From Chromatiales bacterium (GTDB taxonomy: Bacteria > Pseudomonadota > Gammaproteobacteria > SZUA-140), in NCBI GenBank assembly GCA_050486285.1, contig JBJHCZ010000003.1:23886-87885 (forward strand): a stretch of 64,000 bases of DNA, written 5' to 3'. Position numbers and translations under genes: made by a program. Positions within the stretch are counted from its first letter, which is position 1. The number at the start of each line of letters is the position of its first letter. Under the pieces are notes generated by a model. The model did not search any database. It was not told where the DNA came from and was given only the letters and a program-made list of their open reading frames with translations. This document shows, piece after piece, positions 1 through 48,337 of the stretch.

Positions 1-385
1 CGACGCGGCCGTCGGGATCGAACACGCTGTGGACGTAGGGGTCGCCGAAATTGCGCAGCCAGACGATCGCCTCGTCGCGCTGATCCTTGTAGTTCAGTCC
101 GTAGATCGGCAGCACCTGCGCGCGCGCCAGATCGACGAGCAAGGGATGTTCGTAGCGGCACGACACGCACCACGAGGCCCAGACGTTCAGCATCCACACC
201 TGCCCCGCCATGTCGCGGTTCGACACCCGCACCGCCGGATTGTGCAGCTGCGGCAATTCGAATTCCGGCGCCGGCTTGCCGATCAGCGGTGACGGGATCT
301 TGCTCGGGTTCAGGAACAATCCCATCGCGAGAAACGCCGAGAGGACGAGGAAGACGCCCAGCGGTATCAGGTAACGGACGTTCAA
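1..385 (-). CDS. ccmG: Thiol:disulfide interchange protein CcmG/DsbE (cytochrome c maturation), C-terminus cut by window edge; TTG start
   Basis: Minus-strand translation [14 protein letters not shown]...WASWCVSCRYEHP has the thioredoxin CxxC and aligns to the DsbE N-terminus. No ATG is present; an in-frame TTG overlaps the ccmF stop. Confidence 0.8.
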   Translation of the reverse strand, partial: MNVRYLIPLGVFLVLSAFLAMGLFLNPSKIPSPLIGKPAPEFELPQLHNPAVRVSNRDMAGQVWMLNVWASWCVSCRYEHPLLVDLARAQVLPIYGLNYKDQRDEAIVWLRNFGDPYVHSVFDPDGRV

Positions 386-2460
386 CGCTTGGCCTCCGCC
401 AGCTTGCCGGTCGGGGCCGGCGATTTGCCGCCCTTCGCGGTCTTCGCGGCCTCGTCATCACGGCGCCGCACGCCGATGCGGTAGCGGCGGTCGCTGACCG
501 CAAGGGCGCCGCCGATCGCCATCAGCGCGCAGCCGCCCCAGATCCACCAGACGAAGGGTTTGTAATAGATACGCACGCTCCATGCGCCGCCGCCGACCGG
601 CTCGCCGAGCGAGACATAGAGGTCACGGAACAGCGTCGTGTGCAGCGAGGCCTGGGTCATCGGCATCGTCTGCACCCAGTACACGCGCTTCTCCGGCGTC
701 ATCTCGGTGATCTGGCGTCCGTTGCGGAACACCGGGAGATGGCCGCGGGCAGCATCGAAGTTCGGACCCTGACGCTCGACGACGCCGTCGAAGCGGAAGT
801 CATAACCGCCCACGGTCGCGATGTCGCCGATTTCCATGCGCAGGTCGCGCTCGATCTCGTAACTGCTGACCATGGTCACGCCGATGATGAAGATCGCGAC
901 GCCGAAGTGGGCCACCTGCATGCCCCAGTAGCTGCGAGACATGCGCGACAGCGGCGGCGCGCCGGCCTCGCGCGCGACGCGGATGCGGCGCGAGAAGCCG
1001 ACGGCGATCGAGGCGATGACCCAGACCGCCATCAGCCAGCCCAGCGCGGTCAGCGCCTTCCATTCACCGTACAGGAAAGGCACCGCGATCGCGGCGACGA
1101 TCGCCGCGCCGAAGGCCCAGCGCAGGCGGATCGCGATCTCGGGCAGGTCGGCCTTCTTCCAGCGCGCGAGCGGGCCGATGCCCATCAGGAACACCAGCGG
1201 CACCATCAGCGGGATGAACACTGCATTGAAGTACGGCGGACCGACCGAGATCTTGCCGAGATTCAGCGCGTCGAGCAGCAGCGGATACAGCGTGCCGAGC
1301 AGGACCGTGCCGCAGGCGACGACGAACAGCACATTGTTCGACAGCAGCAGGGTCTCGCGCGAGGCCGGGTTGAAACCGCCTTCGGACTTGACCTTCGGCG
1401 CGCGCAGCGCGAACAGTAGCAACGAACCGCCGATCGCGACCACCAGCATGCCGAGGATGTACAGGCCGCGCTGCGGATCGACCGCGAAGGAATGCACCGA
1501 GGTCAGCACCCCGGAACGGACGAGGAAGGTCCCGAGCAGGCTCAGCGAGAAGGCCATGATCGCGAGCAGGACGGTCCAGCTCTTGAAGATGCCGCGCTTC
1601 TCGGTGACCGCGAGCGAATGGATCAGCGCGGTGCCGACCAGCCACGGCATGAACGACGCGTTCTCGACCGGATCCCAGAACCACCAGCCGCCCCAGCCAA
1701 GCTCGTAATAGGCCCACCAGCTGCCGAGCGCGATGCCGAGCGTCAGGAACAGCCAGGCAGCGGTGGTCCACGGACGCGACCAGCGCGCCCAGGCGGCGTC
1801 GAGCCGTCCGCTCAGGAGCGCCGCGATCGCGAACGCGAACGCAACCGAGAAACCGACATAGCCCATGTACAGCAACGGCGGATGGAAGATCAGCCCGGGA
1901 TCCTGCAGCAGCGGGTTCAGGTCGCCGCCGTCCGGCGGCGCCGGGATCAGGCGGTCGAACGGATTCGAGGTCAGCAGGATGAACGACAGGAAACCGATCG
2001 AGACCACGCCGAGGACGCCGATGACCCGCGCGACCATGTCGTCCGGGAGGTTGCGGCTCAGTACGCTGACGGCGAAGGTCCAGCCCGACAGCATCATCAT
2101 CCACAGCAGCAGCGAACCCTCGTGGCCGCCCCACACCGCGGAGATCCGGTAATAGAGCGGGAGATTCGAATTCGAGTGATTGGCGACGTACTGGACCGAG
2201 AAATCGTGGGTGATGAACGCATAGGTCAGACAGATGTAGGCGATGATCACGAACACCAGCTGTCCCTGCGCGGTCGGTCGCGCAAGCCGCATCCACACGA
2301 CGTCGCCGCGGGCCGCGCCCGCGAGCGGCATCGCCGCCTGCACCACGGCCATCATCATCGCCATGATCAGCGCGAAATGGCCAATCTCCGGAATCATCGT
2401 GTCTCCCCCCTCTGCCCTTGTCCCTGCTTCAGTTGGCGCTCGCCGGAATGGCGGTGCCAT
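382..2460 (-). CDS. ccmF: Cytochrome c-type biogenesis heme lyase CcmF
   Basis: 692-aa polytopic membrane protein with the WWD motif [18 protein letters not shown]. Lies between ccmE and ccmG. Confidence 0.95.
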
Positions 2461-2896
2461 CCTCGGCGATCGTCGCCCCGGCCCGTTTCAGCGCTTCGGC
2501 GACCTCGGGCGCCATATAGGTCTCGTCGTGACGCGCCAGCACCTCCTCGGCGCGGAACAGGCCGTTATCGTCGAGCCGCCCCTGGGTCACGACCCCCTGC
2601 CCCTCGCGGAACAGGTCGGGCAGGATGCCGGTGTAGACGACCGGCACGCTCTGCACGGTGTCGGTGACCAGGAATCGCACGGTCAGCCCGTCGGACTCGC
2701 GCACCACGCTGCCTGCCTCGACCAGCCCCCCGAGGCGGAACTTGCGGTCGATCGGGGCCTCGTTCGCCGCCACCTGGCTGGGGCTGAAGAAGAATACGAG
2801 ATTCCCCTGAAAGGCGTTCAGGATCAGTGCGGTGGCAATACCGATCCCGGCCAGGCCGACGGCCACGAAGGCCAGCCGTTTATGTCTGGGTTTCAT
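2429..2896 (-). CDS. ccmE: Heme chaperone CcmE
   Basis: 155 aa with an N-terminal membrane anchor and an OB-fold-like body. Position between ccmD and ccmF. Confidence 0.9.
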
Positions 2897-3062
2897 GATT
2901 CATCCCCACTGGCGGATTACGATTGATTCGACCCAAACGGCTCAGCAGAGTTCGCCGTCCGCGCAGCAACGCGACGACCTCGGCAGCCATCAGGGCCGCG
3001 GTGACCCCGTAGGAGCCCCAGACATAGAGGGCATAGCCGCCCATGTCGAGCCATTCCATCAC
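2880..3062 (-). CDS. ccmD: Heme exporter protein CcmD
   Basis: 60-aa single-TM peptide between ccmC and ccmE. Overlaps both neighbours. Confidence 0.75.
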
Positions 3063-3808
3063 GACCGGCGCGCCTCGCTCGCGATCACCGCGCCGACCCA
3101 GTCACTGTGCCGTTCGCGCTCGAGGATCTCCGAACGGACGCGCATCAGCGCAACCGCTATGGTATAGAGCCAGAACGCGAATGTCATGAGCAATAACCCG
3201 ACAAACATTGAGGTCTCCATCGTCGGCGCGCTCCTTGCGGTGATCGAGGCCCCCTGGTGCAGCGTGTTCCACCATTGCACCGAGAAATAGATGATCGGGA
3301 TGTTGACGACCCCGACCAGGGCGAGCAGACCGCTCGCGCGCGCCGCGCGCCGGGGGTCGTCGATCGCCGCGTTCAGCGCGATGAAGCCGAGATACAGGAA
3401 CAGCAGGATCAGCTCCGAGGTCAGACGCGCGTCCCAGACCCACCAGGTGCCCCACATCGGCTTGCCCCACAAGGCGCCGGTCCACAGCGCGAGGAACGTG
3501 AAGATCGCGCCGGTCGGCGCGAGCGCGCGCGCCATGTAGCTCGACAGCCGGGTGTTGAAGATCAGCCCGGCGCCGGCCCAGCCGGCCATGACGACGTAGA
3601 TGAACATCGACATCCACGCCGCCGGCACATGGATATAGATGATCCGGTAGGCCTCGCCCTGCTGGTAGTCCGTCGGGGCGACGAAGAAACCGACATACAG
3701 CCCGACCACGGTCAGCACCGCCGCCGCGCCCGCGACCCACGGGATCAGCGCGCCGGCCAGCGGGTAGAAGCTGGCGGGGGAGGAATACTTGAACCAGTTG
3801 ATGCTCAT
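3059..3808 (-). CDS. ccmC: Heme exporter protein CcmC
   Basis: Starts MSINWFKYSS. Carries the WGKPMWGTWWVWDARLTSE WWD motif. The longer 423-aa ORF start upstream is rejected. Confidence 0.9.
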   Translation of the reverse strand: MSINWFKYSSPASFYPLAGALIPWVAGAAAVLTVVGLYVGFFVAPTDYQQGEAYRIIYIHVPAAWMSMFIYVVMAGWAGAGLIFNTRLSSYMARALAPTGAIFTFLALWTGALWGKPMWGTWWVWDARLTSELILLFLYLGFIALNAAIDDPRRAARASGLLALVGVVNIPIIYFSVQWWNTLHQGASITARSAPTMETSMFVGLLLMTFAFWLYTIAVALMRVRSEILERERHSDWVGAVIASEARRS

Positions 3809-3828
3809 CAATGCCAATCCATGCGTAT

Positions 3829-4512
3829 TCAATCGAGCGATATCCGCAACGCCGCCGCCGTCACCCACGGTCCGAAACACAGCGTCAGCACCAGGAATGC
3901 CCCCAGCAGGGACAGATGGGCCGCGGCGTCCATCCCCGCCGCCGTTGCCTCGACCGCCCCGGCGCCGAAGATCAGCACCGGGACGTACAGTGGCAGAACC
4001 AGTAATGATATCAGCACACCGCCTCCGCGTAACCCCAGCGTCAGCGCGGCGCCGACGGCGCCGATCAGGCTCAGCGCCGGGGTCCCGAGCAGGAGCGCGA
4101 GCATCAGCACCCACAAAACCTCGCCGTCGAGCCCGAATTGCAGACCCAGCAACGGCGAGATCAATACCAGCGGCGCGCCGGTCACCAGCCAGTGCGCGGC
4201 GACCTTGCCGAGGACCAGCAGCGACAGCGGCTGGGGCGCCAGCAGCATCTGTTCCAGCGTGCCGTCGCTGTAATCGGCGTTGAACAGCCGCCCGAGCGCC
4301 AGCATCGACGCCAGCAGGGCAGCCACCCACAGCACGCCCGGCGCGATCGCCTCGAGGATCCCGAGCGCGGGCCCGACGCCGAGCGGGAACAGGCTGACGA
4401 CGATGACGAAGAAGATCAGCGTCGTCAGCACGTCGACGAGCCGGCGCCCGGCCAGCGTCAGGTCACGGACCAGCACGCACCCGAGGATTGCGAACGGACC
4501 GGGCCGGTTCAT
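3829..4512 (-). CDS. ccmB: Heme exporter permease CcmB
   Basis: 227-aa polytopic membrane protein in operon position. Confidence 0.9.
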   Translation of the reverse strand: MNRPGPFAILGCVLVRDLTLAGRRLVDVLTTLIFFVIVVSLFPLGVGPALGILEAIAPGVLWVAALLASMLALGRLFNADYSDGTLEQMLLAPQPLSLLVLGKVAAHWLVTGAPLVLISPLLGLQFGLDGEVLWVLMLALLLGTPALSLIGAVGAALTLGLRGGGVLISLLVLPLYVPVLIFGAGAVEATAAGMDAAAHLSLLGAFLVLTLCFGPWVTAAALRISLD

Positions 4513-5126
4513 GCGCCCATCCTGATCTGCTTGACCGTCGCCGCATCGATCACGACCGGCTGGTGCGTCGTCAGCACCGCCATGCCGCCGCGGTCGAGAT
4601 GCGCACGGATCGTCGTCCGCAGCAGTTCGACCGCGGCGGCGTCGAGCGCGTTGAACGGCTCATCGAGTACCCACAGGCGCGCCTCGGTCAACAGCAGCCG
4701 GGCGAGGCCGACACGCCGTTTCTGACCCTGGGACAACACCCGGGTCGGAAGATCCTCGTAACCGGCCATGCCGATGCGCGCGAGCGCGTCCAGCGCCTCG
4801 GTCTCGCCGACCGCGATGCCGGCGAGGCGGCCGCTGATGCGCAGGTTCTCGAGCGCGGTCAGCTCGTCCTTGATCGCGTTGTGATGACCGCAATAGGCAA
4901 GGTCCGCGCGGAAGAGATCGCCGAGGGCGCCGATCTCCTGCCCGTCCCACAGCACACGCCCCGCGGCCGGCAACACCATGCCGCACAGCATCCTGAGCAA
5001 TGTGGTCTTGCCGCTGCCGTTCGGCCCGTTCACGTACAGCAGCTCGGCGGGCGCGAGTTCGAAACTCAGTCCGGCGAACAGGCCGCGGTCCCCCCGGATC
5101 GCCGCGAGGGCCTCACCCTGCAACAT
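4509..5126 (-). CDS. ccmA: Heme exporter ATP-binding protein CcmA
   Basis: Walker A GPNGSGKTT, ABC signature LSQGQKRR, Walker B LWVLDEP. Confidence 0.9.
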   Translation of the reverse strand: MLQGEALAAIRGDRGLFAGLSFELAPAELLYVNGPNGSGKTTLLRMLCGMVLPAAGRVLWDGQEIGALGDLFRADLAYCGHHNAIKDELTALENLRISGRLAGIAVGETEALDALARIGMAGYEDLPTRVLSQGQKRRVGLARLLLTEARLWVLDEPFNALDAAAVELLRTTIRAHLDRGGMAVLTTHQPVVIDAATVKQIRMGA

Positions 5127-5256
5127 CGCTCAGGCACCGCCCTGCAGACGTTTCCGCGCGTGACCCATATCGTGTGACGTAAGCCGTGGAATGGATGGGA
5201 GAAACTGTGGCCGGCAAGTGTCTCACATGAGACCCCCGGCGACAAGGCAAACAAAC

Positions 5257-5289
5257 GGGGTCAGAGTAGACTACGTCTACTCTGACCCC
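5257..5289. repeat. REP-like palindrome GGGGTCAGAGTAGAC-TAC-GTCTACTCTGACCCC (15-bp stem)
   Basis: Perfect inverted repeat directly downstream of the TonB receptor stop. The same arm sequence recurs at 32841-32923, 36549-36577 and 42418-42450. Confidence 0.6.
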
Positions 5290-5295
5290 GTCATT

Positions 5296-7545
<2,250 letters not shown>

Positions 7546-7661
7546 CAATCTCTGCTCCCTCTCCCGGTCTGCCCGGTTCGCCAGTGGTGATGTTGCCCGT
7601 CGCTGGATCTCGCCGGGTCGAGGGCCGCAGTATTTCAGGACCACTTACGGATGTCAATACA

Positions 7662-7686
7662 AATACGAGTCATTATCATTCGTATT
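7662..7686. promoter_or_regulatory. Fur-box-like AT-rich element AATACGAGTCATTATCATTCGTATT upstream of the TonB-dependent receptor
   Basis: The TCATTATCATT core resembles the Fur consensus half GATAATGATAATCATTATC and is flanked by a 7-bp inverted repeat. It is the only AT-rich patch in the divergent 7546-7779 intergenic region. Confidence 0.3.
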
Positions 7687-7779
7687 ATTCAATGCATTTG
7701 TCTCCGGCTGTCCCGGACCCGCCCATTTGGTTAGAATCCCGTTGAAGATGAAGCGATTCCCCGGCCACGCAGGACATCC

Positions 7780-8739
7780 ATGAACGAGCCCTTCGAGCGC
7801 CTCCGCGCGCATATCGGCCGCTGCGTGATCGGCCAACCCCGGCTGGTCGAGCGCCTGCTGACGACGATCCTGACCGGCGGGCACGCGCTGCTCGAGGGTC
7901 CGCCGGGCCTCGCCAAGACCACCGCGGTGCGCGCCCTCGCCGGCGGCATGGCGCTCGGCTTCCAGCGCATCCAGTTCACGCCGGACATGATCCCCGGCGA
8001 CATCACCGGCACCGACATCCTGCTGCCGCGCGACCACCGTTTCGAATTCGTGCCGGGGCCGATCTTTCACGAGATCATCCTCGCCGACGAGATCAATCGC
8101 GCCCCGCCGAAGGTACAGTCGGCCCTGCTCGAAGCGATGCAGGAACGCCAGGTCACGGTCGGCGGCACGACGCATCGCTTGCCGCCGGTATTCATGGTCA
8201 TCGCGACCCAGAACCCGATCGAGCAGGAAGGCACCTATCCGCTGCCGGAGGCGCAGCTCGACCGCTTCCAGATGAAGATATGCATCGACTACCCGGATGC
8301 GGACGAGGAGCTCGCGATCCTGCGACTGGACCGCGCGCGTCATGAAGGCCGAGATCCGCTGGAGGACATCGAGGTCGTCATGGACAGCGATCAGTTGCTG
8401 GACGCGCGCCGTCAGGTGACTGCGGTCTATCTCGACGAGATGCTCGAACGCTACATCGTCGCCCTGGTCGGCGCGACCCGCGCGCCCGCGCGGGTCGATG
8501 CCGAACTCGCCGAGTGGCTGAATCGCGGGGCCTCGCCGCGGGCGTCGCTCGCGCTCGCGCAGACCGCGCGCGCGCGTGCCTGGCTGTCCGGTCGCGACTT
8601 CGTCGAGCCCGACGACATCATCGCGCTGGCGCCCGATGTCCTCGGCCATCGGATCGGGCTTGCCTTCGGGGCGCATGCCGCGGGCGTCGCGCCCGAGCGC
8701 GCAATCGCGCGCATCACCGAATGCGTACCGGTCCCCTGA
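7780..8739 (+). CDS. MoxR-family AAA+ ATPase
   Basis: Walker A GPPGLAKT and typical MoxR length (319 aa). First gene of a MoxR/DUF58/VWA operon. Confidence 0.9.
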   Translation: MNEPFERLRAHIGRCVIGQPRLVERLLTTILTGGHALLEGPPGLAKTTAVRALAGGMALGFQRIQFTPDMIPGDITGTDILLPRDHRFEFVPGPIFHEIILADEINRAPPKVQSALLEAMQERQVTVGGTTHRLPPVFMVIATQNPIEQEGTYPLPEAQLDRFQMKICIDYPDADEELAILRLDRARHEGRDPLEDIEVVMDSDQLLDARRQVTAVYLDEMLERYIVALVGATRAPARVDAELAEWLNRGASPRASLALAQTARARAWLSGRDFVEPDDIIALAPDVLGHRIGLAFGAHAAGVAPERAIARITECVPVP

Positions 8740-9668
8740 GCCGGCAGGCTGCGCCACCTGCCCCGTTGCTCGGCCCCGCCGAACTCGAACAGTTGCGCGA
8801 GATCGCGCTGCGCCGCCGCTCGCGGCGCTACCGCACCTTCCCTGCCGCCGCCGGCACGGGACCGAGGCCGACGCACTGGCACGGCCAGGGGATGGAACTG
8901 CACGACGCGCGGCCCTACCAGCCGGGCGACGACATCCGCCACCTCGACTGGCGCGCGACCGCGCGCAGCGGCAAGCCGGTCAGCAAGCTCTTCGTCGAGG
9001 AACGCGCGCGGGCGCTGTTCCTGCTGATCGACCGCCGTCCGTCGATGATGTTCGGCACGCGCCGCGAGCTGAAGGCCGCGACTGCCGCCCGCGTCGCGGC
9101 GATCCTCGCGTTCTCGGCGCTCGCCGAGCGTGAACCGGTGTCGGGCGTCGTGCTCGATGAACGGGGTGGACGCTATTTCCCGCCGACACGCACCATCGAC
9201 GGCGTCCTGTCGCTGTTGCTCGCCGCCGCCGCAGCGCCGCAGTTGCCGCGACACGGCGCGGCGTCACCCGCGCCGGCGGTGGTCGCCGATGTCCTGCCGG
9301 GCCTGCTCGCTACCGGCACGACCTGCTGCCTGATCAGCGATTTCGAGACGGTACTCGCAGGCGATGCCGACCTCGCTGATCTGCTCCCGCACCAGACCGC
9401 CGCGCAGGCCGCGGAACGCGTAGCGCTGCGCATCACGGACATTGCCGAGCGGCGGCTCCCGAACGCCGGGGTGCTGCGGCTCGCCGCGCCCGGCGGCGGC
9501 GCCAGCGCGCTGATCGATACCGGAGATCCGGAACTCCGCCGGCGTCTGCGCGCGGCGATCCTCGAACGCGACCGGCGCTTGCGGGACGCCTGCCGACGCC
9601 ACGGCGTCACGCTGCTCGAGATCCATAACGACGCCGACCTGCCGGCGCAGCTCGACGCCCTGCTATGA
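8721..9668 (+). CDS. DUF58-family protein (MoxR partner, VWA-like)
   Basis: Motif LHDARPYQPGDDIRHLDWRATARSGKPVSKLFVEE is typical of DUF58. Start chosen at MRTGPLS overlapping the MoxR stop; the longer 8514 start is rejected. Confidence 0.8.
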   Translation: MRTGPLSRQAAPPAPLLGPAELEQLREIALRRRSRRYRTFPAAAGTGPRPTHWHGQGMELHDARPYQPGDDIRHLDWRATARSGKPVSKLFVEERARALFLLIDRRPSMMFGTRRELKAATAARVAAILAFSALAEREPVSGVVLDERGGRYFPPTRTIDGVLSLLLAAAAAPQLPRHGAASPAPAVVADVLPGLLATGTTCCLISDFETVLAGDADLADLLPHQTAAQAAERVALRITDIAERRLPNAGVLRLAAPGGGASALIDTGDPELRRRLRAAILERDRRLRDACRRHGVTLLEIHNDADLPAQLDALL

Positions 9669-10165
9669 CCGGCATGATCGCCGACAGCGCGGCGCTGGCG
9701 ACGCTCGCGGATATCGAACTGCCGATCCCGCCGGAGGCGCCGTCGCTGGTCCTGCTCGTGCTCACCGTCCTCGCGGTCGCAGCCGTCATCGCCATATTGC
9801 TGTTGTGGCAACGACGCGGCGCCGCGCCCGGACATGCGCCCGAAGCGGAACCGTCCCGCCTGCCGGTCGGGCAACAGGCCTTGCAACGCCTCGCCGCGCT
9901 GGAGGCCGCATGGTCTGCCGGCCGCATCAACGATCGCGAGGCCGGATTCCGTTTGTGCACGCTTCTGCGGCTGGGGCTCGGACTCGCGCAGATCGACGGC
10001 GCGCGCCCGCCTGCAGGCGTCGATGACGGTCGCTGGCGCGCCTTCGTCTCCCGATTGCGCGAGATACGCTATCGCCCGTACCATGCGCCCGTGACTGCAG
10101 CGCTGTTCGAACAGGCGCGTGACTGGCTCGCCCCTCACCCAGCGCCGGGGCATGCCGATGTTTGA
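9665..10165 (+). CDS. Small membrane protein, DUF4381-like, typical of Bat operons
   Basis: 166 aa with one TM helix (LVLLVLTVLAVAAVIAILLLW). Sits between the DUF58 and BatA genes with ATGA overlap to the upstream stop. Confidence 0.5.
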   Translation: MTGMIADSAALATLADIELPIPPEAPSLVLLVLTVLAVAAVIAILLLWQRRGAAPGHAPEAEPSRLPVGQQALQRLAALEAAWSAGRINDREAGFRLCTLLRLGLGLAQIDGARPPAGVDDGRWRAFVSRLREIRYRPYHAPVTAALFEQARDWLAPHPAPGHADV

Positions 10166-11153
10166 ACTCGCGACTCCGCTGTGGCTGCTGCTGCTGCCGG
10201 CGCCGGCGCTGGCATGGTGGCTCGGCGGACGCCGTCGGTCCGGCGGCGACGAGGACGCGGCGCTGCTGCACCCGCAGGCCGCGCTGCTCGCCCGCCTGCA
10301 ATCGCCGTCGCGCGCGACGACCGCGATCCCCTGGGCCTGGCTGCTCGCTTGCGCGCTGCTGGTCGCGGCGCTGGCGCGGCCGCAATGGATCGTCACCGAT
10401 CCTGCGGACGGGATACCCGGCCACAATGTGATCTTCGCGATCGACGTCTCGGGCTCGATGCGCATCCTCGACTATGCGATCGACGGCAGGACGGTCAGTC
10501 GGCTCGACATGCTCAAGCACACGCTGAGCGGATTTCTGGAGCAGGCGCCGCGACTGCGCGTCGGTATCGTCGTGTTCGGCGACGATGTCATGACCTGGTC
10601 GCCGCTGACGACGGACCTCGCGCTCGCTGCGCAACTCGTCGCCGGGATCGACAACAGCCTCGCCGGCGAGCGCACCGCGCTCGGCGACGCGATGGCCCTG
10701 TCGATACGCCGGCTCCAGGCGGTCACCGACGCGGATGCGTCGCGGGTACTCGTGGTACTGACCGACGGCGTGCCGACCGCAGGCACGATCGATCCCCTCA
10801 CCGCCGTCGAACTCGCGCGCGCAGCCGGCATCCGCGTCTACACCGTCGGGCTCGGCACGGAGAATCCCGCGCCGTTCCCGCTCGGTCGCGATGGCGAACA
10901 TACCCTCGCCGACATCCCGCTCGACGAGGCCTTCCTCGCGGACATCGCCGCGCGCGGCGACGGCAACTTCTACCGGATCCGCCACAGCACCGACCTGTTG
11001 CAGGCCCTCGACGACATCGACCGGCTCGAACAGTCGCGCCTGCCGGCGCGCGCGGAGGCGCGCGAATGGTACTGGCTGCCCGCGCTGGCCGGGCTGGCCT
11101 TGCTGGTCCTCGCCGATCGCCGGTCATTCGCGCGTGCCGGGGCGCCGGCATGA
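10152..11153 (+). CDS. BatA-like VWA-domain membrane protein
   Basis: N-terminal MFELATPLWLLLLP TM segment and a VWA MIDAS motif FAIDVSGSM. Confidence 0.8.
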   Translation: MPMFELATPLWLLLLPAPALAWWLGGRRRSGGDEDAALLHPQAALLARLQSPSRATTAIPWAWLLACALLVAALARPQWIVTDPADGIPGHNVIFAIDVSGSMRILDYAIDGRTVSRLDMLKHTLSGFLEQAPRLRVGIVVFGDDVMTWSPLTTDLALAAQLVAGIDNSLAGERTALGDAMALSIRRLQAVTDADASRVLVVLTDGVPTAGTIDPLTAVELARAAGIRVYTVGLGTENPAPFPLGRDGEHTLADIPLDEAFLADIAARGDGNFYRIRHSTDLLQALDDIDRLEQSRLPARAEAREWYWLPALAGLALLVLADRRSFARAGAPA

Positions 11154-12880
11154 GCGCGTGGGTCCCCGCCGTAGGCTTCGATCAGCCGTTATGGCTGCTG
11201 CTCGTGCCGCTGGTCTGGGTGCTGTATCGCTGGCGTCGCCGTCCCGGCGGGACGCCTGACGGCCTGCAGGCCTATGCCGATGCCCGCCTGCTGCCCTGGC
11301 TGGTGCTGACGCCGGGCCGGTCGTCCGCCGCGTGGCTGGGCCTGCTCGCGTGGCTGCTGATCGTCGTCGCCCTCGGCGGTCCGGTCCTGCTCGACCGGCA
11401 GACGACCGAGCGGCGCGCCGCGCTCGACATCGCGGTGATCCTCGACATCTCGCCGTCGATGCGCGCGGGCGACGTCGAACCGGACCGCCTGCAGCGTGCG
11501 CGCCTCGAACTGCATGACCTGCTGCAGCGCCTGCGCGGCGATCGCGTGGCGCTGATCGCATTCTCGGCCCATGCCTATCCGGTACTGCCGCTGACGGATG
11601 ACCTCGCCGCGATCCCGTGGTATCTCGATGCCCTGGAGCCGGGGCTGACCCGGCTCGCCGGCAGCAACGTCGTGCCTGCGCTCGAACTCGCCGCACGGAC
11701 GCTCGACGCCGCCGCGGGCGGCGGGCGCGCGATCCTGTTGCTGAGCGACGGAGAATTCCCGGACAGTGCCGAGGCGCTGGCCGCAGCGGACCGGCTCGCG
11801 CGGCGCGGCATTCCGCTCTTCGCGCTCGGCGTCGGGACGGCGAGCGGGGCGCCGGTACCGGCGGCGGGCGGCTTCCACCGCGACGGCGACGGCAACCTCG
11901 TCGTATCGCGACTCGATCGCGAATTACTGAGCGAGATCGCCGCGCGCACCGGCGGGGGATATGCCGACCTGCGCGCCGACGGCGGTGGCTGGGAATCGTT
12001 GTTGCGGGGACTGTCGGCGCTGGCGCGCGCCGAACGGCCGTCATCGGCGCAGCCGAGCGGCCTGCCGCTGTGGCCGTGGCTGCTCGCCGGCGGACTCCTG
12101 CTGCTGATCGCGCTGCGCCTGCGCGCGCCGCTCCCGGCCTTGCCCGGGCTGGCACTGGCCGGGCTGGCACTGCTGGCGCTCAGCCCGATCGCCGATGCCT
12201 CGCCATCGGCCGAGCGCGCCGCATTCGAGGCGCTGAGCGCGGGGCGGCTGGCCGAGGCCGAGGCCTTGTATCGCGACCTCGACAGCTTCAATGGTCGGCT
12301 CGGCGCCGGCGCCGTCGCCTGGCGGCAGGCGCGCTTCGGCATGGCGCGCGAGCGCTTCGCCGAGGCGGAGCGGCGCGCCGGGAATGATACCGAGCGCGCG
12401 ATCGCGATCTATAACCAGGGCAATGCGCTGGCCCGCCTCGGTCGGCTCGCGGAGGCCATGCGGGCATACGATGACGCGCTGGCGCTGCACCCCAACCATG
12501 CGCGCGCCGCGCTCAATCGCGACATCGTCGGTCGCGTGCTTGGACGCGCCACGGGCGACGACCCCGACGCGACGCCGCGCATCACGCCTGATGCCGACGA
12601 TGTCAGCCCGGGTGATCAGAGGGACCGCGACGCCAGCGGCGAGGCGCGCGCGGTCGAGGGTGACGGCGGCGACCGCGGCAGCGGACGCGCGCAGGTCATC
12701 GCCCGGCCGCTGCCCGGCGGCCGGCAGCCGATGCAGGCCGGCGGCAGCGCCGGCGAATCGGCGCAGGCAGCGCTCGCGCGCATCGATGCCGTCGAGGATC
12801 ATGCCGCCGAGGTGCTGCGCCATCGCTTCATGCTGATGGACGCCGACCGGCCCCGCGTCGAGGAATCCCGGCCATGGTAG
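11150..12880 (+). CDS. BatB/BatC-like VWA plus TPR protein
   Basis: Start MSAWVPAVGFDQPLWLLLVPL with ATGA overlap to BatA. VWA motif DIAVILDISPSM and TPR-like repeats (AIAIYNQGNALARLGRLAEAMRAYDDALALHP). The 899-aa ORF at 10181 is an out-of-frame artefact. Confidence 0.75.
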   Translation: MSAWVPAVGFDQPLWLLLVPLVWVLYRWRRRPGGTPDGLQAYADARLLPWLVLTPGRSSAAWLGLLAWLLIVVALGGPVLLDRQTTERRAALDIAVILDISPSMRAGDVEPDRLQRARLELHDLLQRLRGDRVALIAFSAHAYPVLPLTDDLAAIPWYLDALEPGLTRLAGSNVVPALELAARTLDAAAGGGRAILLLSDGEFPDSAEALAAADRLARRGIPLFALGVGTASGAPVPAAGGFHRDGDGNLVVSRLDRELLSEIAARTGGGYADLRADGGGWESLLRGLSALARAERPSSAQPSGLPLWPWLLAGGLLLLIALRLRAPLPALPGLALAGLALLALSPIADASPSAERAAFEALSAGRLAEAEALYRDLDSFNGRLGAGAVAWRQARFGMARERFAEAERRAGNDTERAIAIYNQGNALARLGRLAEAMRAYDDALALHPNHARAALNRDIVGRVLGRATGDDPDATPRITPDADDVSPGDQRDRDASGEARAVEGDGGDRGSGRAQVIARPLPGGRQPMQAGGSAGESAQAALARIDAVEDHAAEVLRHRFMLMDADRPRVEESRPW

Positions 12881-14466
12881 CAATGCGCTGTCTCGCGTCC
12901 GGTCTTTTACTGCTGCATGCCACGGCGGCCCTTGCGGCCAGCTTCACCGCGAGCGTCGATCGCCGGGAGCTGTTCGTCAACGAGCATATCGTGCTGACCC
13001 TGGCGCTGCACGACAGCGACACCCGTCTGCGCGCCGAGGGCGTGTCGCCGAACGTCGATCTGACCGTGCTGAGCGACCAGTTCGAGATCGGCATCCCGCG
13101 CGCCGACTTCCGCTTCAACATCGACCGCAACCGCGGCCGTTCGACCTCATCGATCGCCGTCGAGCTGTTTCCCCGCCGCAGCGGCCGTTTGACGATCCCG
13201 CCGTTTACCGTCGCCGGCCTGACCACGGATCCGATCATCGTCGAGGTCGTCGACCGACCGGTCGGCGCCGCGGCCGAGGCCTTCGCCGTCAGCGGCGTCG
13301 GTACGCGCAGGCTCCACATCAACGAGCAGACGATGGTGTTCCTCGATCTCTACCACCGCGTCAGCCTCGACAGCGCGCGCCTCGGCGGCACGGTCGAGAC
13401 CCGGCCGCAACGCGTCGAGATGCATCAACTGCCGCCGGAAAACCGCGTGGAGATCGTCGACGGCATCGAATACCAGGTCACCCGCACCGCCTGGGCGATC
13501 AGCCCGCTGGTGCCCGGCGACCTCCGGGTGCTGTTACCGGACATCTGGATCGAGACCCGGCAGGGTCGCCAGTGGCGACTGCCGTTCTCGGAAGAACGCA
13601 TCGATGTCGTGCCACTGCCCGCCTCCGCGCCGCCGGACCTCATCATCGGCCGGCCTGTGGTCGGCTTCGAAGTCCCCGACGAGGTCGCGACCGGGCGCAT
13701 GACGCCATGGGCGCTGACGCTGCGCGCGCCGACGGCGCTGAACGCGCTGCCTTCGGTCCTGCCGTTCGGCGACCACGACGACTCGCTGCGGATCTTCATG
13801 GAACCGCCGGAACGCCGGCTGGAGCCGCGCGCCGACGGCGGCATCGACAGCATTGCCGTCTATCGCGGGGCGCTGATGGCGCTGGCGCCGGGGCTGGTCT
13901 CGCTGCCGGCGCTGGACCTGGCGTGGCTCGACCCCGACAACGGCCGCATCGAAATCCTGTCGGTGCCCGGACGCCCGCTGCGCATCAGCGGGGCGCCGGT
14001 GGCAGAAGGCGCGCCCCCCGCAGTATCGATGGCTGTCCGCGGGACCAGCACGGAGACACGCCTCTGGCAGGCGGTCTCCGCCCTGCTTGCGCTCTCATGG
14101 CTTGTCGCCGGTTTCCTCTGGTGGCGTCGGGTGCGCGGCAGCACGCCGATGCCGAAACCACGGTCTCCGGCGCGCGACCCGCTGCAGGCGTGCCTGCTCG
14201 ATGCGCTGGACTCACAAACGCTGGAACAGGGCCTCAGGCACTACGAGGCCGCGTATGGACCCGACGGAGAACTGCGCGCGGTGATCCGGGCAGTCCAGCG
14301 CCGCCGCTATCACCCGGGCGCCGCCGAAGCCCCTGCGGACCTCGAAAGCCGCGTCGACCGGCTCGTTGCCCGCCTGCGCCGCGCACCGCCCCCCGCGCCC
14401 GCCGGGGAACAGGACGCATGGTCCCCCCGCGCCTTCACGCGCGGCAAACCCGCCAACGGGGACTGA
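12874..14466 (+). CDS. BatD-like protein (oxygen-tolerance family)
   Basis: Signal peptide, a large periplasmic domain and a TM helix near residue 390. ATGGTAG overlap with the BatB stop. Confidence 0.65.
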   Translation: MVAMRCLASGLLLLHATAALAASFTASVDRRELFVNEHIVLTLALHDSDTRLRAEGVSPNVDLTVLSDQFEIGIPRADFRFNIDRNRGRSTSSIAVELFPRRSGRLTIPPFTVAGLTTDPIIVEVVDRPVGAAAEAFAVSGVGTRRLHINEQTMVFLDLYHRVSLDSARLGGTVETRPQRVEMHQLPPENRVEIVDGIEYQVTRTAWAISPLVPGDLRVLLPDIWIETRQGRQWRLPFSEERIDVVPLPASAPPDLIIGRPVVGFEVPDEVATGRMTPWALTLRAPTALNALPSVLPFGDHDDSLRIFMEPPERRLEPRADGGIDSIAVYRGALMALAPGLVSLPALDLAWLDPDNGRIEILSVPGRPLRISGAPVAEGAPPAVSMAVRGTSTETRLWQAVSALLALSWLVAGFLWWRRVRGSTPMPKPRSPARDPLQACLLDALDSQTLEQGLRHYEAAYGPDGELRAVIRAVQRRRYHPGAAEAPADLESRVDRLVARLRRAPPPAPAGEQDAWSPRAFTRGKPANGD

Positions 14467-14546
14467 CCCCGTCGAGGCCCCCTCGTGAATCTGCTGCCTG
14501 TGTTTGTTTTCGAGCCTCAGTTCCGTGTCACGGTTTCGTACCACAG

Positions 14547-14820
14547 CCGTTGTCGGCGTCTGCCGTCCATGACACGCGTGAATACGTCCCTGTAGCTCAC
14601 GGCCGCATCCCTGCGGCCGAAGGTCATGGACGGCAGACGCCGACAACGGCTCGAGAGTGCGTGCAGGTGGTCGGGGCGGTTCGTCGCGGACCGCGGCACG
14701 ACCCTGCCGAGCCGCAGGTGGTTGTCGCTGTCCAAGACCTTCCGGCCGCAGGACGCGGCCGGGGAGCGTACAGGGATGTATTAACAGCGTGTCATGGACA
14801 GCGACAACCACCTGCGGCTC
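14547..14820. repeat. Two adjacent long inverted repeats: 28 bp perfect (14547-14574 / 14623-14650) and 30 bp with one mismatch (14709-14738 / 14791-14820)
   Basis: Both right arms begin GTCATGGAC. Loops are ~48 and ~52 nt. Located in the convergent gap between batD and the dsbA-like gene. Confidence 0.6.
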
Positions 14821-14889
14821 AACCACAGACGTCGGATCACTGGAAATCCCGCGGAATAAAGTCAGGCGGTCAGGCAGAAGTTCGCTGGG

Positions 14890-15519
14890 TTAGCGCGCCG
14901 ACAGTTCGCGGTCGACGAGCCAGTCGACGATCTCGATCAGCATCTCCGCATTGCGCGCCATCGTCGCATCGACACGATACTTGCCGTTGACGACGAAACT
15001 CGGCGCGCCCTGGATCTCGTAACGGCGGCTCATCAGCTGGGCATTGCGTACCCGCGTCGCCGCCGCGCTGCCGCGAAACGCAGTGAGGAAGCGCGTGCGA
15101 TCGATGCCCTGCTCGGCAAAGAAATCCGCCATCAGCGGCTCACTGTCGAGCTGCCTGCCGTGTCGATGCAAGGCGGTGTAGATCGGGCCATGCACGCGGT
15201 CGAGGACGCCGAGGGACTCGGCCGCGAAGTAGGCGCGCGCATGGAAGACCATGTGACCGCCGACCACCGCCGGCATGCGCCGGAAGGTCACGCTGTTGCC
15301 CCGTGCCACGAGCCAGCGTTCCAGCGCCGGCTGCACGACAAAGCAGGTCTGGCAGTCATACCACAGGAACTCGATGACCTCGACGGTACCCGGCGCCGCC
15401 TCGACCGGTTGCGGCGGCTCGATCAGCTTGTAATTCATGCCCTCGATGAAGCCGCCGGCGGCGTGGACTTGCAGCGACAGCAAGAGCGCGCCGAGTAGCA
15501 GTGCGATTTTCCGTATCAT
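14890..15519 (-). CDS. DsbA-family thiol:disulfide oxidoreductase
   Basis: Start MIRKIALLLGALLLSLQVHA (signal peptide). Thioredoxin-like CxxC in WYDCQTCF. The longer 368-aa ORF start is rejected. Confidence 0.7.
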   Translation of the reverse strand: MIRKIALLLGALLLSLQVHAAGGFIEGMNYKLIEPPQPVEAAPGTVEVIEFLWYDCQTCFVVQPALERWLVARGNSVTFRRMPAVVGGHMVFHARAYFAAESLGVLDRVHGPIYTALHRHGRQLDSEPLMADFFAEQGIDRTRFLTAFRGSAAATRVRNAQLMSRRYEIQGAPSFVVNGKYRVDATMARNAEMLIEIVDWLVDRELSAR

Positions 15520-15538
15520 CGTTATGGCCGTCAGGTCG

Positions 15539-16300
15539 TCAGTTGATGTCCCGGACCGGGATCGTGATCTCGGCCCCGGCGGCGCCGTCACGGTCGGGCA
15601 GGTTGCGCTCGACCCATTCGCGGGTCCTGCGCTCGATCCACTCGGCCTCGTGCTCGGGTAGCGGCCCGCGGGCCAGCCTGGTTTCCCACTCCCACAGCGC
15701 CGAGCGCGCGCGGCGGACATAGGGGTCATCCGGGGAGGCGAGATGGATGTAGACGCGCATCGCCCCGAGCGCGCCTTCGAGATCGCCGAGCTTCTCGAGC
15801 GCGACCGCGAGGCCCCAGTAGGCATTGCCGAGCCAGGGATCGAGGTCGGTCGCGGTGTGGAAGAAGTCATGCGCGCCGCGATAATCCTCGAGGCCGAGCA
15901 GCGTATAGCCCATGTTCGCGTGCGCCTCGGGCAGGCGCGGCGAAAGCTGGAGCACCCGGTGCAGCGCGACCATCGCCTCGTCGAAGCGCTGCGCATGCAA
16001 CATCACGACGGCCTGCTGGAAACGCATGTCGATCTCGGCGAGGCGGTCATCGGCAGGCGGCTCTGCCGGCGAGGGCAGCGGCATCAGGTCGACGACCCGC
16101 GCCGGTTCCGTCGTCGCGCGCGGGCTTCCCGACATGACTGCCATGTCCATCGGCGTCACGATCCGCTGCGGCGTCAACTGCGCGGTCTGCAGCAGGGACT
16201 TCAGATCCGGGGCGGCGGCGAGCATGAACACGGTGCAGGCAATGACGCCGACCAGGCTCATCGACACCGCAGAGATCGACGACTCGTGGGAGTGCCTCAT
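15539..16300 (-). CDS. Membrane-anchored TPR-repeat protein; possible apocytochrome chaperone (CcmI/NrfG-like role is inferred)
   Basis: Start MRHSHESS overlaps the ccsA stop (ATGA). One TM helix is followed by TPR-like helices (EAHANMGYTLLGLEDYRGAHDFFHTATDLDPWLGNAYWGLAVALEKLGDLEGA). Confidence 0.6.
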   Translation of the reverse strand: MRHSHESSISAVSMSLVGVIACTVFMLAAAPDLKSLLQTAQLTPQRIVTPMDMAVMSGSPRATTEPARVVDLMPLPSPAEPPADDRLAEIDMRFQQAVVMLHAQRFDEAMVALHRVLQLSPRLPEAHANMGYTLLGLEDYRGAHDFFHTATDLDPWLGNAYWGLAVALEKLGDLEGALGAMRVYIHLASPDDPYVRRARSALWEWETRLARGPLPEHEAEWIERRTREWVERNLPDRDGAAGAEITIPVRDIN

Positions 16301-17154
16301 ATGACCCCCTTGTGCGCGGCCTCGCTGTAGAACGGTGTGCCGAAATAGGTGAAGAACGCGAACGCGAACACACCGACGATCGCCATCGCGCCGAGCCTCG
16401 GATGCAGATTGTAGGTCAGGCGGAGGTGGATCAGGCCGGCCATCATCAGCCAGTTCAGAAACGACGAGGTCTCGAGCGCGTCCCAGGCCCAGTAGCGGCC
16501 CCAGGCATCCTGCGCCCACACCGCGCCGGCGATCAGCATCAGGCTGTGGAACACCAGCGCCAGCAGCATGAAGCGCCAGGCGACCGTATCGAGGATACTG
16601 TCGGACGGCATCTGCCGCAGCAGAAAGCGGAAGCCGCGCACGCCGCGCAACAGGATGATGCCGGCCAGTCCGGTCGCGATCAGGCACAGGCCGAGAAAGA
16701 CCTTGCCGAAGCCGACATGGGCCCACAGCCAGTTATGATAATAGGTCGGCGGATAGGGGCTGGCGGCCGGGTCGAGGGTCAGCACCCAGATACCCATCAT
16801 CCACAGCACCGGCAGCACGACGATGACGGTCGGCCGGATCAGCGGTACGCGCCAGTAGGCGATCGTGTAGATCAGGCCGAGGCTGAACAGCTGGCTGATC
16901 AGCAGTTCGAACAGGTCGACGAAGGGACCGTGGCCGACGCGGAGCCAGCGTTCGGTCAGCGAGACTGCGAGCAGCAGCACCGCCGACGCCAGCAAGGCGA
17001 GGACGTAAGGTTCATGGCTGCGCGAGAAGGTCAGCGCAGAAACGCCATTGTTGGCGCGCAGCGCGCCCTGCGCGGCAAATACGGTCGCCAGCGCGTACGC
17101 GGCGAGACCGGCATACAGCCACGGCATCTCCGCGACCATCATCTCTTCGCTCAT
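16297..17154 (-). CDS. ccsA: System II cytochrome c biogenesis protein CcsA/ResC
   Basis: Polytopic membrane protein with the WGRYWAWDALETSSF WWD motif and conserved His residues. Confidence 0.85.
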   Translation of the reverse strand: MSEEMMVAEMPWLYAGLAAYALATVFAAQGALRANNGVSALTFSRSHEPYVLALLASAVLLLAVSLTERWLRVGHGPFVDLFELLISQLFSLGLIYTIAYWRVPLIRPTVIVVLPVLWMMGIWVLTLDPAASPYPPTYYHNWLWAHVGFGKVFLGLCLIATGLAGIILLRGVRGFRFLLRQMPSDSILDTVAWRFMLLALVFHSLMLIAGAVWAQDAWGRYWAWDALETSSFLNWLMMAGLIHLRLTYNLHPRLGAMAIVGVFAFAFFTYFGTPFYSEAAHKGVI

Positions 17155-18179
17155 GGTGTTTTACCTCCGAGTTGCGCGGCGGCCTTCTTGCGCGCGGCCT
17201 CCTGGGCCGCCGAGTAGACCTGGATCGCGCCGAACTTGCGCCAGAAGTGCGCCGCCAGACCGAACACCGCGATCATCGACGCAAGAAACAGCCAGTGCAG
17301 CGTCTGATCGTAGTAGATCCGGTAACCCATCCAGCCGGCCAGCCGCTCGAAGCGCAGGAAGCCGCCATCGATGCGCGCCGTCTCGCCGGGCTGTAATTCA
17401 ATGCGGTCTTCGCCGGCGCGCACGACGAGGACGCCCTCGGAGGCGCGCGGATCGAGGCGCCAGCTCGCGTCCGGATCGATGCCGGTCTCGAGTTGCAGCC
17501 AGAACCGGATCTCGTCCTCTGTGCCCTCCGGCGTCCAGCGATTCGCCTGCCGATGCTCGAACAGCGGATAGGACGGCATGTGCACCGAACCCGTCACCGG
17601 CATGCCGCCGTCGGGGATCCAGGTCAGCACCGCAGCGAAGCCCTTGTTGAACGTCGTATAGAAACGGTAGCCCTCTGCCCGCAGCGGGGTATCGTCGCCG
17701 ACGACCCTGTGTTCCCAGCCGCCGCGGCCGTCGGGCACCCTGATCTCGCTGCGCGTCGCGCCCCGCGACATCCCGACCCGGTAATCGATCGTGTACGGTC
17801 CCTGCACGAAACCGACGCGGTCGAGGTCGCCGCGATGCCAGGGTCCCGCGCGCACGTTGATGATCTCGTCGGCGTGGAAGGAGTCGCCCTCGGTCAGTTC
17901 GACGTTGGCCTCCATCATCGTCATGCGGCCGATCGCCGCGAGTACGGCGATCGCGAGCAGACCGAGGTGAAACACCAGCAGGGCGCCGCGGCGGTTGATG
18001 CGCGGATTGGTGATCACCGCCGCGAGCAGGTTGACCGCGAGCAACGTCATCGGCGCCGCCAGCACCCAGGTCGGCGTGTCGACCGGGTTGTCGTAGTTGA
18101 GCGCAGCGCCCACGCCCAGAAAGGCCATGCCGAACAGGGTCAGCCGGGTCGAGGCGAGACTGCGCAGCGCCGCGCTCAT
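17151..18179 (-). CDS. ccsB: System II cytochrome c biogenesis protein ResB/CcsB (short form)
   Basis: Start MSAALRSLASTRLTLFGMAF overlaps the multiheme cytochrome stop. N-terminal TM helices, a large periplasmic domain and a C-terminal TM. Located immediately upstream of ccsA. Confidence 0.75.
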   Translation of the reverse strand: MSAALRSLASTRLTLFGMAFLGVGAALNYDNPVDTPTWVLAAPMTLLAVNLLAAVITNPRINRRGALLVFHLGLLAIAVLAAIGRMTMMEANVELTEGDSFHADEIINVRAGPWHRGDLDRVGFVQGPYTIDYRVGMSRGATRSEIRVPDGRGGWEHRVVGDDTPLRAEGYRFYTTFNKGFAAVLTWIPDGGMPVTGSVHMPSYPLFEHRQANRWTPEGTEDEIRFWLQLETGIDPDASWRLDPRASEGVLVVRAGEDRIELQPGETARIDGGFLRFERLAGWMGYRIYYDQTLHWLFLASMIAVFGLAAHFWRKFGAIQVYSAAQEAARKKAAAQLGGKTP

Positions 18180-21975: not shown

Positions 21976-21979
21976 CGCG

Positions 21980-22966: not shown

Positions 22967-23508
22967 CTGCCGCAGTTCATCGTGGGTGCGAAGGCGACGC
23001 GACCATGGCAGAGCCCGCAATACTCGCCCTGGATGATCGCCGACATGTTGACCGGATTCGCGCCCCGCTTCGGAATGAAAGGTACCGGATGGCAGTTCGC
23101 GCAGGTCAGCCACTCGGTATGCTGGAGATGCGGGAACCTGACATTGGGCATCGATTGCGTATTCGTGAAGATGATGTCGAAATCGACAGTGAACATCTGC
23201 CGCGAGCCGTCGAGACTCTGGCGGGGATCGATCAGCCCGCGGTTCAGCGTCCTGACCCAGTCGATCAGCCCGCCGGCGTCGCGCGGGAACCGGGCCATTG
23301 CGTCATATGGATCCTGGAACACCGCGGCGGCCTCGCCGCTCGGGTCGCGGATGCCGTCATTCGCGGTCGGTACCCGCTCGCCGGAGGAAAACTGGAAATG
23401 GCCGACGTTGCGCTCCCAGGAAGGCGCCTGCTGCGCATGGGCCAGCCCGAGTCCCGACAGCAGGCATGCGAGCAGCGTGATGCCCAGGAATCGCAGCGAT
23501 ACACGCAT
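22927..23508 (-). CDS. Triheme c-type cytochrome (c7-like core with N-terminal extension)
   Basis: Signal peptide MRVSLRFLGITLLACLLSGLGLAHA. Motifs CANCH, CGLCH, CGRCH with FPHLQHTEW preceding the first heme site. Paralog of 25130-25807. Confidence 0.8.
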   Translation of the reverse strand: MRVSLRFLGITLLACLLSGLGLAHAQQAPSWERNVGHFQFSSGERVPTANDGIRDPSGEAAAVFQDPYDAMARFPRDAGGLIDWVRTLNRGLIDPRQSLDGSRQMFTVDFDIIFTNTQSMPNVRFPHLQHTEWLTCANCHPVPFIPKRGANPVNMSAIIQGEYCGLCHGRVAFAPTMNCGRCHSVSPEVTLLR

Positions 23509-23534
23509 CGGATATGTCGCGACACTCATCTCTC

Positions 23535-25076: not shown

Positions 25077-25129
25077 GCTTTCCTCGTACTGCTACCCGCG
25101 GCCGGGGGCGCCGGCCGCGGGGCGCCGCA

Positions 25130-25807: not shown

Positions 25808-25829
25808 GATGGGCTCCCCCTTCCTTCAA

Positions 25830-26288: not shown

Positions 26289-26353
26289 GACTAACCTCTC
26301 CTCAATGGATATACAGATAATTATTTTTGTCTCGGGCGGTCGCCGGCGGGCAG

Positions 26354-28067: not shown

Positions 28068-28203
28068 AGGCGCCTGAGATCAGGTTTCCCCACCAGCATG
28101 AACGCACTTCCCCCGCATCATCAGCCGAGCGCCTGTCGTTGTTATAGCTGGCGAATGCCGAAACCGCGCCGGCCGGCCGCGCCCCGCAAGCAGGGGACAC
28201 GGG

Positions 28204-48335: not shown

Positions 48336-48337
48336 GA

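Follow-up and report, generated by a model that had tools for sequence, protein, structure and literature searches.

We found that a 64,000-nt stretch of a Chromatiales genome (contig JBJHCZ010000003.1; G+C ~66%), hereafter the window, carries within its uet (undecaheme electron transfer) operon a short ResB/CcsB-like gene and a CcsA-like gene that, judged from their sequences, are a module-linked and functional-looking System II cytochrome c synthase. Our data show which genes these are, that their catalytic residues are intact, and that linkage of the pair to uet genes is conserved. Its likeliest role, which we regard as moderately probable, would be to attach the 24 hemes of the Uet cytochromes, as a System II-type synthase expressed together with them. 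The locus is the published uet porin-cytochrome module, matching it gene for gene, and both the arrangement and the idea of dedicated maturation go back to an earlier study (Eddie et al. 2022, bioRxiv 10.1101/2022.05.06.490989). That study described the cluster uetABCDEFGHIJ-ccsAB-nrfG-batABD in 'Ca. Tenderia electrophaga' and in the electrode-feeding Tenderiales, counted the bat operon within the module, noted that type-II maturation proteins are unusual for Gammaproteobacteria and additional to type-I, and proposed on bioinformatic grounds a role for CcsAB and the TPR protein in maturing the Uet cytochromes. The adjacency of ccm genes is not discussed there, 'ccm' being absent from the main text. 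Some Gallionella (PMC10734462) and Leptothrix (PMC13386937) are likewise reported to carry uet homologues. The window is a further instance of the described arrangement, and the new part is comparative, namely the conservation of the catalytic residues, how often the pair and uet genes occur together, and the repeated synteny with genes for general maturation.

Genes were read on the minus strand and compared with Pfam and NCBIfam. The uet operon and the bat operon convergent with it consist of the following.

20902 to 30100, minus strand: uetI, H, G, F, E, D, C, B and A, identified from sequence, homologous loci and the published list
18176 to 20905, minus strand: UetJ, undecaheme c-type cytochrome, 909 aa, 11 CXXCH, conserved C882/C905 pair
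17151 to 18179, minus strand: short Uet-type ResB/CcsB-like subunit, 342 aa, invariant F70-H71 in a transmembrane helix
16297 to 17154, minus strand: Uet-type CcsA-like cytochrome c synthase subunit, 285 aa, with H146, W218-D225 (WWD), H243 and H281
15539 to 16300, minus strand: membrane-anchored TPR protein, 253 aa, 'NrfG-like' in the uet literature
14890 to 15519, minus strand: DsbA-like periplasmic thiol oxidoreductase, 209 aa, CQTC motif, final gene of the operon
7780 to 14466, plus strand: moxR-DUF58-DUF4381-batA-batB-batD operon, convergent with the uet operon

The products of uetA to uetI comprise two NHL propellers, three c7 triheme cytochromes, a cupredoxin-like protein, a 581-aa outer-membrane barrel, a peptidyl-prolyl isomerase and a tetraheme cytochrome, and the homologous loci share the uet gene order with the window. 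As in Tenderia, the genes run tetraheme, isomerase, barrel, c7, c7, cupredoxin-like, c7, NHL, NHL and undecaheme, followed by the two System II genes, the TPR gene and the convergent bat operon, whereas in the window the TPR gene is followed by a DsbA-like gene absent from the published list, and a ccm operon lies ~9.8 kb downstream. The TPR gene is kept after ccsA in nearly all loci, and the DsbA-like gene is confined to the gammaproteobacterial clade of loci. Upon reading the junctions from UetJ through resB and ccsA to the TPR gene, we find 4-base ATGA overlaps at all three (18176-18179, 17151-17154 and 16297-16300), in agreement with the stop-start overlaps given by an earlier note on this DNA. 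Such overlaps are frequent in operons; they point to co-transcription, but do not prove the translational coupling that the note had also claimed. The identical three overlaps recur in the relatives L001, L085 and L086, with short gaps instead in the Thiotrichales locus L003.

Next, we consider the two subunits. The CcsA-like protein can be aligned to H. hepaticus CcsBA, whose structure is solved (7S9Y, E = 3.9e-11), with H146, H243 and H281 falling on P-His1 H761, TM-His2 H858 and P-His2 H897, and the segment WGRYWAWD (W218-D225) on the WWD motif. Across 25 homologues, down to 31% identity, the three histidines as well as W218, G219, W222 and W224 never vary, and at least 90% of the sequences have D225. 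The protein scores above the cut-off of PF01578 (73.5 versus 29.9 bits) and below that of the NCBIfam equivalog TIGR03144 (109.3 versus 187.6 bits). Only 30 representatives of a library clustered at 50% identity score better than 1e-30, after which identity drops to ~30%, and the Uet-type CcsA is by these sequence measures a divergent subfamily, separate from the housekeeping CcsA. A phmmer search of both proteins against all open reading frames of the window for a second System II pair returned the query proteins alone. The earlier note had named loss of the conserved histidines and WWD residues as the sign of pseudogenes; the WWD motif and the heme-ligand histidines are conserved, so that the pair are not pseudogenes, and they have the appearance of a functional CcsB/CcsA that has diverged and become shorter.

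For the ResB-like protein, PF05140 is matched at 37.6 bits (cut-off 24.6) over residues 63-178 only, and NCBIfam gave no match. Against the PDB sequences, phmmer and a profile hmmsearch gave no significant match to CcsBA, and hhalign against the canonical ResB of the Thiohalomonadaceae locus L013 reached a non-significant E = 0.13 in the C-terminal segment only. We rejected a sequence-level tie to the solved CcsBA or to canonical ResB on these results; the support comes from Pfam and from the fold search. The AlphaFold2 model (predicted local distance difference test score 85.4) has helices at residues 11-30, 38-57 and 65-87, a beta-rich region at 89-290 and a helix at 294-336, that is, a predicted topology of N-terminal transmembrane helices, beta-rich domain and C-terminal transmembrane helix, as in CcsB. 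Its top Foldseek match in the PDB is CcsBA 7S9Y (E = 5e-6, probability 1.00), with a TM-score of only 0.30. Furthermore, F70-H71 in helix 65-87 is invariant in 21/21 Uet-type sequences, down to ~30% identity, and H71 would, by its position rather than by a residue-level alignment, be the counterpart of TM-His1 H77 of CcsBA. Compared with the canonical CcsBA/ResBC (7S9Y/7S9Z), the pair has the WWD motif and four histidines equivalently placed and a similar predicted ResB topology and fold, but differs in the length of ResB (342 aa versus 554 aa in L013), in the ~30% identity and sub-equivalog score of CcsA, and in that ResA- or CcdA-type reductant genes do not adjoin it.

We then examined where the pair occurs. 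In every genome locus that has at least 42% CcsA identity and reaches beyond the gene pair, the pair is embedded in uet genes; the hosts are gammaproteobacterial metagenome-assembled genomes, Thiotrichales, Thiohalomonadaceae, Rhodocyclales, Burkholderiales, Novimethylophilus, a Nitrospinota metagenome-assembled genome and Aromatoleum tolulyticum ATCC 51758. Away from uet genes the Uet-type subfamily is hardly ever seen, and its hosts belong to the Gamma- and Betaproteobacteria and the Nitrospinota. In a search anchored on UetJ, the ResB-like gene is present in 35 of the 46 metagenomic loci with at least 2.2 kb of downstream sequence, and both genes lie directly downstream in 29 of them. Neighbour-joining trees of CcsA, ResB and UetJ, which are rough and carry no support values, share major clades that cut across host class labels; the phylogeny proposed in the earlier note speaks for travel of the pair together with the uet genes, within the coarseness of such trees. 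Additionally, a canonical 554-aa ResB (314 bits), a 338-aa CcsA and a thioredoxin (L013:12782-16511) come directly after the Uet-type pair in L013. Since the subfamily is separate, travels with uet genes and persists beside a canonical pair in L013, the pair is module-linked and not housekeeping, which argues against the vertical, housekeeping origin that the note had set as the alternative.

On the reading that we favour, the last four genes of the operon would be a self-contained maturation sub-module, on one strand and with overlaps or short gaps. The ResB/CcsB-like and CcsA-like proteins would jointly form a System II-type cytochrome c synthase, the membrane-anchored TPR protein would be a likely apocytochrome chaperone, and the DsbA-like oxidoreductase would also belong to the sub-module. 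Heme would cross the membrane via ResB H71 and CcsA H243, be held at the periplasmic WWD site between CcsA H146 and H281, and then be attached at CXXCH in the Uet cytochromes, a set of five proteins with 24 hemes between them. The synthase would be produced in step with the Uet cytochromes because it is part of their operon, and the nearby ccm System I would serve as the general pathway, for instance for the cytochromes of an alternative complex III (ACIII) at 47-54 kb. Upon closer examination of the TPR protein, we find matches to generic TPR Pfam families only; the best NCBIfam models (MamA, NlpI, type III secretion chaperones) are far below their cut-offs and the NCBIfam models of the CcmI/NrfG family give no match, and it is possible that the protein could still act as a functional analogue of the NrfG/CcmI apocytochrome chaperone.

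The heme sites of the clients bear directly on whether the synthase is dedicated to them. UetJ has exactly 11 CXXCH, with no CXXCK and no CXnCH such as CX3-4CH, and the heme sites of UetA, D, E and G are CXXCH only. An unusual heme motif as the ground for a dedicated lyase was rejected, UetJ and 14 orthologues having neither CXXCK nor CXnCH. The sites being all canonical, System I should be able to mature the Uet cytochromes, and the motif rationale of NrfI, CcsA1 and NrfEFG does not apply. C882 and C905 of UetJ are the only extra cysteines invariant in 15 UetJ orthologues, and neither precedes a histidine; they probably form a disulfide, which may be tied to the DsbA-like gene of the gammaproteobacterial clade.

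Several points weigh against the proposed role. The canonical CXXCH sites of all Uet cytochromes here are the first, and the assignment of the ResB-like protein through a weak, partial Pfam match and a fold match of low TM-score (0.30) is the second. Furthermore, neither Pfam nor NCBIfam finds a CcdA- or ResA-like reductant gene in the uet operon or its sub-module, the sole thiol protein of which is DsbA-like, an oxidant; CcmG is encoded in the ccm operon, ~14.5 kb away, and the canonical pair of L013 has its accompanying thioredoxin. Five clusters (L098, L104, L110, L111 and L113) have a 34%-identical ResB-like gene with no CcsA-like gene detected, the operon stopping directly after ResB-like in L104 and L111 (e.g. 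L104:5137-6291), and other uet clusters have neither gene within 6 kb, with some UetJ paralogues being solitary; therefore, the pair is not obligatory. The clusters with ResB-like only suggest that a host CcsA can partner the short ResB, or that the latter has a separate role. Additionally, Aromatoleum locus L015 carries the pair inside a uet variant without UetJ, so that its link is with the module rather than with UetJ. Finally, we infer heme attachment by the pair and its preference for Uet clients, and likewise the roles of the TPR and DsbA-like proteins. The client-dedicated heme lyase of the earlier note therefore holds in part: the pair is intact, distinct, linked to uet genes and kept beside a canonical pair, but its presumed clients have canonical motifs and it is neither tied to UetJ nor obligatory. 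From the sequences, a dedicated lyase appears plausible.

The alternative that fares best is that the pair is an ordinary System II synthase without client selectivity, carried along with the uet module and redundant with Ccm here, allowing the module to work in any host or adding heme-attachment capacity for a 24-heme operon; we consider this possible rather than probable. The exclusively canonical CXXCH motifs are in its favour, as are the patchy distribution of module clades across classes, which is consistent with horizontal spread, the loss of CcsA or of both genes in some uet clusters, and the fact that maturation genes are known passengers of the mtrCAB module (PMC8805035). However, the pair is kept with conserved catalytic residues beside System I in the window and beside a canonical System II in L013, and this retention in hosts with other systems argues against pure redundancy, under which it should decay; the far divergence from housekeeping proteins, with a short ResB and a sub-equivalog CcsA score, suggests specialisation.

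The proximity of the two systems has further alternatives attached to it, and for these the System I genes of the window are needed.

1 to 385, minus strand: ccmG/dsbE, 5' part, 128 aa in the window, WCVSC motif; TIGR00385 114 bits (partial protein)
382 to 2397, minus strand: ccmF, System I heme lyase, 671 aa from the MIPEIGHF start; TIGR00353 787 bits, PF16327 451 bits
2429 to 2896, minus strand: ccmE heme chaperone with the HDETY heme-binding histidine motif; 212 bits
2880 to 3062, minus strand: ccmD; TIGR03141, 55 bits
3059 to 3808, minus strand: ccmC, 249 aa, WWD domain; TIGR01191 250 bits
3829 to 4512, minus strand: ccmB, identified from sequence and its place between ccmA and ccmC
4509 to 5126, minus strand: ccmA, ABC ATPase, identified from sequence; the L086 homologue is 76% identical and in the same relative position

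The heme-delivery genes ccmABCDE and ccmF score above the curated Pfam and NCBIfam cut-offs, WWD motifs are readable in CcmC and CcmF and HDETY in CcmE, and homologues of ccmB, 71-72% identical, come after ccmA in L125 and L135. System I and System II-like genes do lie within 18 kb of each other, as the earlier note had pointed out, with ccmA to ccmF and a partial ccmG at 1-5126 and the ResB/CcsA-like genes at 16297-18179. The Ccm operon that it called full comprises ccmA to ccmF and the start of ccmG, but ccmG, whose TTG start overlaps the ccmF stop (TTGA), continues past the window edge, and ccmH and ccmI would lie outside the window.

Across the Uet-type loci, we observe that general maturation genes follow downstream on the same strand in 12 of the 35 that have at least 4 kb after CcsA; L125 and L135, with 3.8 kb of downstream sequence, also carry them. 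The arrangements are ccmF(GHI) in 8 loci, ccmABC in 2, ccmC-ccmD-ccmF in 1 and canonical resB-ccsA-thioredoxin in 1, with a CcmC-like gene in Aromatoleum, and downstream ccm genes are found in L010, L011, L014, L016, L105, L114, L116, L125, L131, L135 and L145. In L086, a close relative of the window, ccmA comes after the bat operon (L086:20514-21029), ~7.2 kb beyond dsbA compared with ~9.8 kb in the window; in all other adjacent loci the maturation genes are at most ~2.5 kb after the TPR gene. No general maturation neighbour was found within 10 kb in L003, L008, L009, L012, L018, L021 and L085. Most loci with the adjacency fall in a single clade of the CcsA tree, among others that lack it, and the window subclade is a second case; because of this concentration, they are not independent. 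It is probably not wholly by coincidence that the two systems are close together, and the adjacency is compatible with shared regulation, co-transfer or functional dependence. This downstream synteny is a modest new observation beyond the uet paper.

A client-specific synthase that senses canonical-CXXCH multiheme cytochromes by protein features rather than by a special heme motif, perhaps through the short ResB or the TPR protein, and that works as a hybrid with the general system of the host would explain both the downstream ccm or System II genes and the clusters with ResB-like only; we entertain it tentatively, as slightly less credible than the non-selective travelling System II. A hybrid pathway, in which the Uet-type pair is non-autonomous and uses parts of the general system of the host, for example CcmG/CcmH or ResA/CcdA to reduce the CXXCH thiols, appears improbable. 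It would explain why general maturation genes are frequent downstream (12 of 35 loci, together with L125 and L135, after the TPR gene), and it fits a sub-module that holds no reductant-pathway gene and the ResB-like-only clusters such as L104 and L111, which imply pairing with a host CcsA; however, the synteny comes mostly from one CcsA clade of non-independent loci, many loci (the seven listed above) have no maturation neighbour within 10 kb, and co-location may reflect shared regulation or co-transfer and not physical cooperation. That the pair has lost synthase function or does another job such as heme export or sensing, its System II label being one of homology only, is very hard to credit, because the heme-handling residues known from CcsBA are conserved across the subfamily and the pair is located in c-type cytochrome operons, even though the ResB-like protein is short and very divergent, with no NCBIfam match and no significant PDB or canonical ResB profile match, and the CcsA-like protein falls below the equivalog cut-off.

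The favoured role, a System II-type synthase serving the Uet cytochromes, has partial precedents. Wolinella succinogenes has NrfI for the CXXCK of NrfA, CcsA1 for the CX15CH of MccA, and a general CcsA2 (PMC12285233). As there, an extra CcsBA-type synthase stands beside its presumed client in addition to a general system, but the Wolinella lyases are fused CcsBA proteins for non-canonical motifs, whereas here the subunits are separate, ResB is short, the motifs are canonical CXXCH and the general system is System I and not a second CcsBA. In E. coli, NrfEFG is a dedicated System I-type lyase with a TPR partner, NrfE being a CcmF paralogue that needs CcmE (PMC12285233); a lyase in the client operon together with a TPR protein, in a host with general Ccm, is common to both, and NrfG binds the apocytochrome, whereas the extra lyase here is System II-type and its TPR protein matches no CcmI/NrfG model. 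Similarly, ccmA-I adjoin mtrCAB clusters in genomes that have ccsAB/resBC elsewhere (Baker et al. 2022, PMC8805035), so that in both cases an extracellular-electron-transfer module lies beside maturation genes and both systems occur in single proteobacterial genomes; there System I neighbours Mtr, whereas the uet module contains System II and has System I or a canonical System II next to it. With a divergent System II synthase inside an extracellular-electron-uptake operon, in hosts that have a general system, the locus is a clean natural case for why some bacteria hold two heme-attachment routes. If the pair is Uet-specific, it would be the first dedicated lyase for clients with ordinary CXXCH alone, and it would also be required to express Uet conduits in other hosts for bioelectrochemistry.

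The earlier note had further suggested that the pair was possibly acquired together with the cytochrome module. Travel with uet genes across classes supports this, but there is no signal of recent acquisition. The G+C content at third codon positions (GC3) is 0.79-0.91 throughout, and codon usage correlates at 0.97 or above between the ccm, ccsBA and uet gene groups; both measures are alike in ccm, ccsBA/TPR/dsbA, uet and flanking genes. Recent horizontal acquisition by composition was therefore rejected, GC3 and codon usage being uniform, and the codon-usage comparison that the note had asked for gives no sign of it for the ccsBA pair. The remainder of the window consists of core genes (ribosomal proteins, trp, his, tat and ACIII). 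Since codon usage and GC3 match those of ccm and the flanks and the surroundings are core genes, any acquisition is ancient.

A tRNA-Gln lies at 32952-33025, 2.9 kb upstream of uetA. When it was examined as a genomic-island boundary, no repeat of it was found elsewhere, and the only repeats in the scanned interval 32900-33080 belong to a short palindromic element beside it, at 32841-32923; with no tRNA repeat and core genes in the rest of the window, there is no evidence of a genomic island. The palindromic element (CGGGGTCAGAGTA ... TACTCTGACCCCG) recurs in three intergenic regions (5256-5290, 32844-32920 and 42417-42451), with 8 matches at up to 2 mismatches against ~1 expected by chance, and looks like a REP-type repeat or a bidirectional terminator. 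Just upstream of uetA there are two porin-like genes (30246-31358 and 31503-32531), the second in a stretch of lower G+C (~0.60). At the other end of the operon, the convergent gap between batD and dsbA is filled by two long inverted repeats (14545-14651 and 14709-14820), with arms of 29-30 nt that are 97-100% complementary and ~50 nt between the arms; Rfam gave no match to them at the gathering threshold. The ACIII-like gene set, named from sequence features alone, is at 46117-53685 and includes a pentaheme ActA-like protein (52984-53685), a molybdopterin/FeS-like large subunit (49823-52980), membrane subunits and a monoheme cytochrome (47227-47811).

Among the other loci, L015 (NZ_FTMD01000012.1, ~1000-16800) is a rearranged uet variant in the cultured Aromatoleum tolulyticum ATCC 51758, with UetA, a peptidyl-prolyl isomerase, an 810-aa barrel, c7 cytochromes, NHL, ResB-like, CcsA-like, TPR, CcmC-like and thioredoxin genes, and this strain could be a tractable organism for the pair. 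In L105, ccmC and ccmD are followed at once by ccmF (L105:9653-11917), with no space for ccmE and no ccmAB upstream, which is either an unusual System I split or a case of ccmE lying elsewhere. Finally, betaproteobacterial-type clusters have a COX1-like membrane protein, resembling heme-copper oxidase subunit I, that immediately precedes the TPR domain or is fused with it, as well as a membrane spermidine-synthase-like methyltransferase and a radical SAM protein among the maturation genes (extra genes at L014:10687-12177, L011:10816-12762, L014:7473-9212, L105:8110-9684 and L014:5083-6525).

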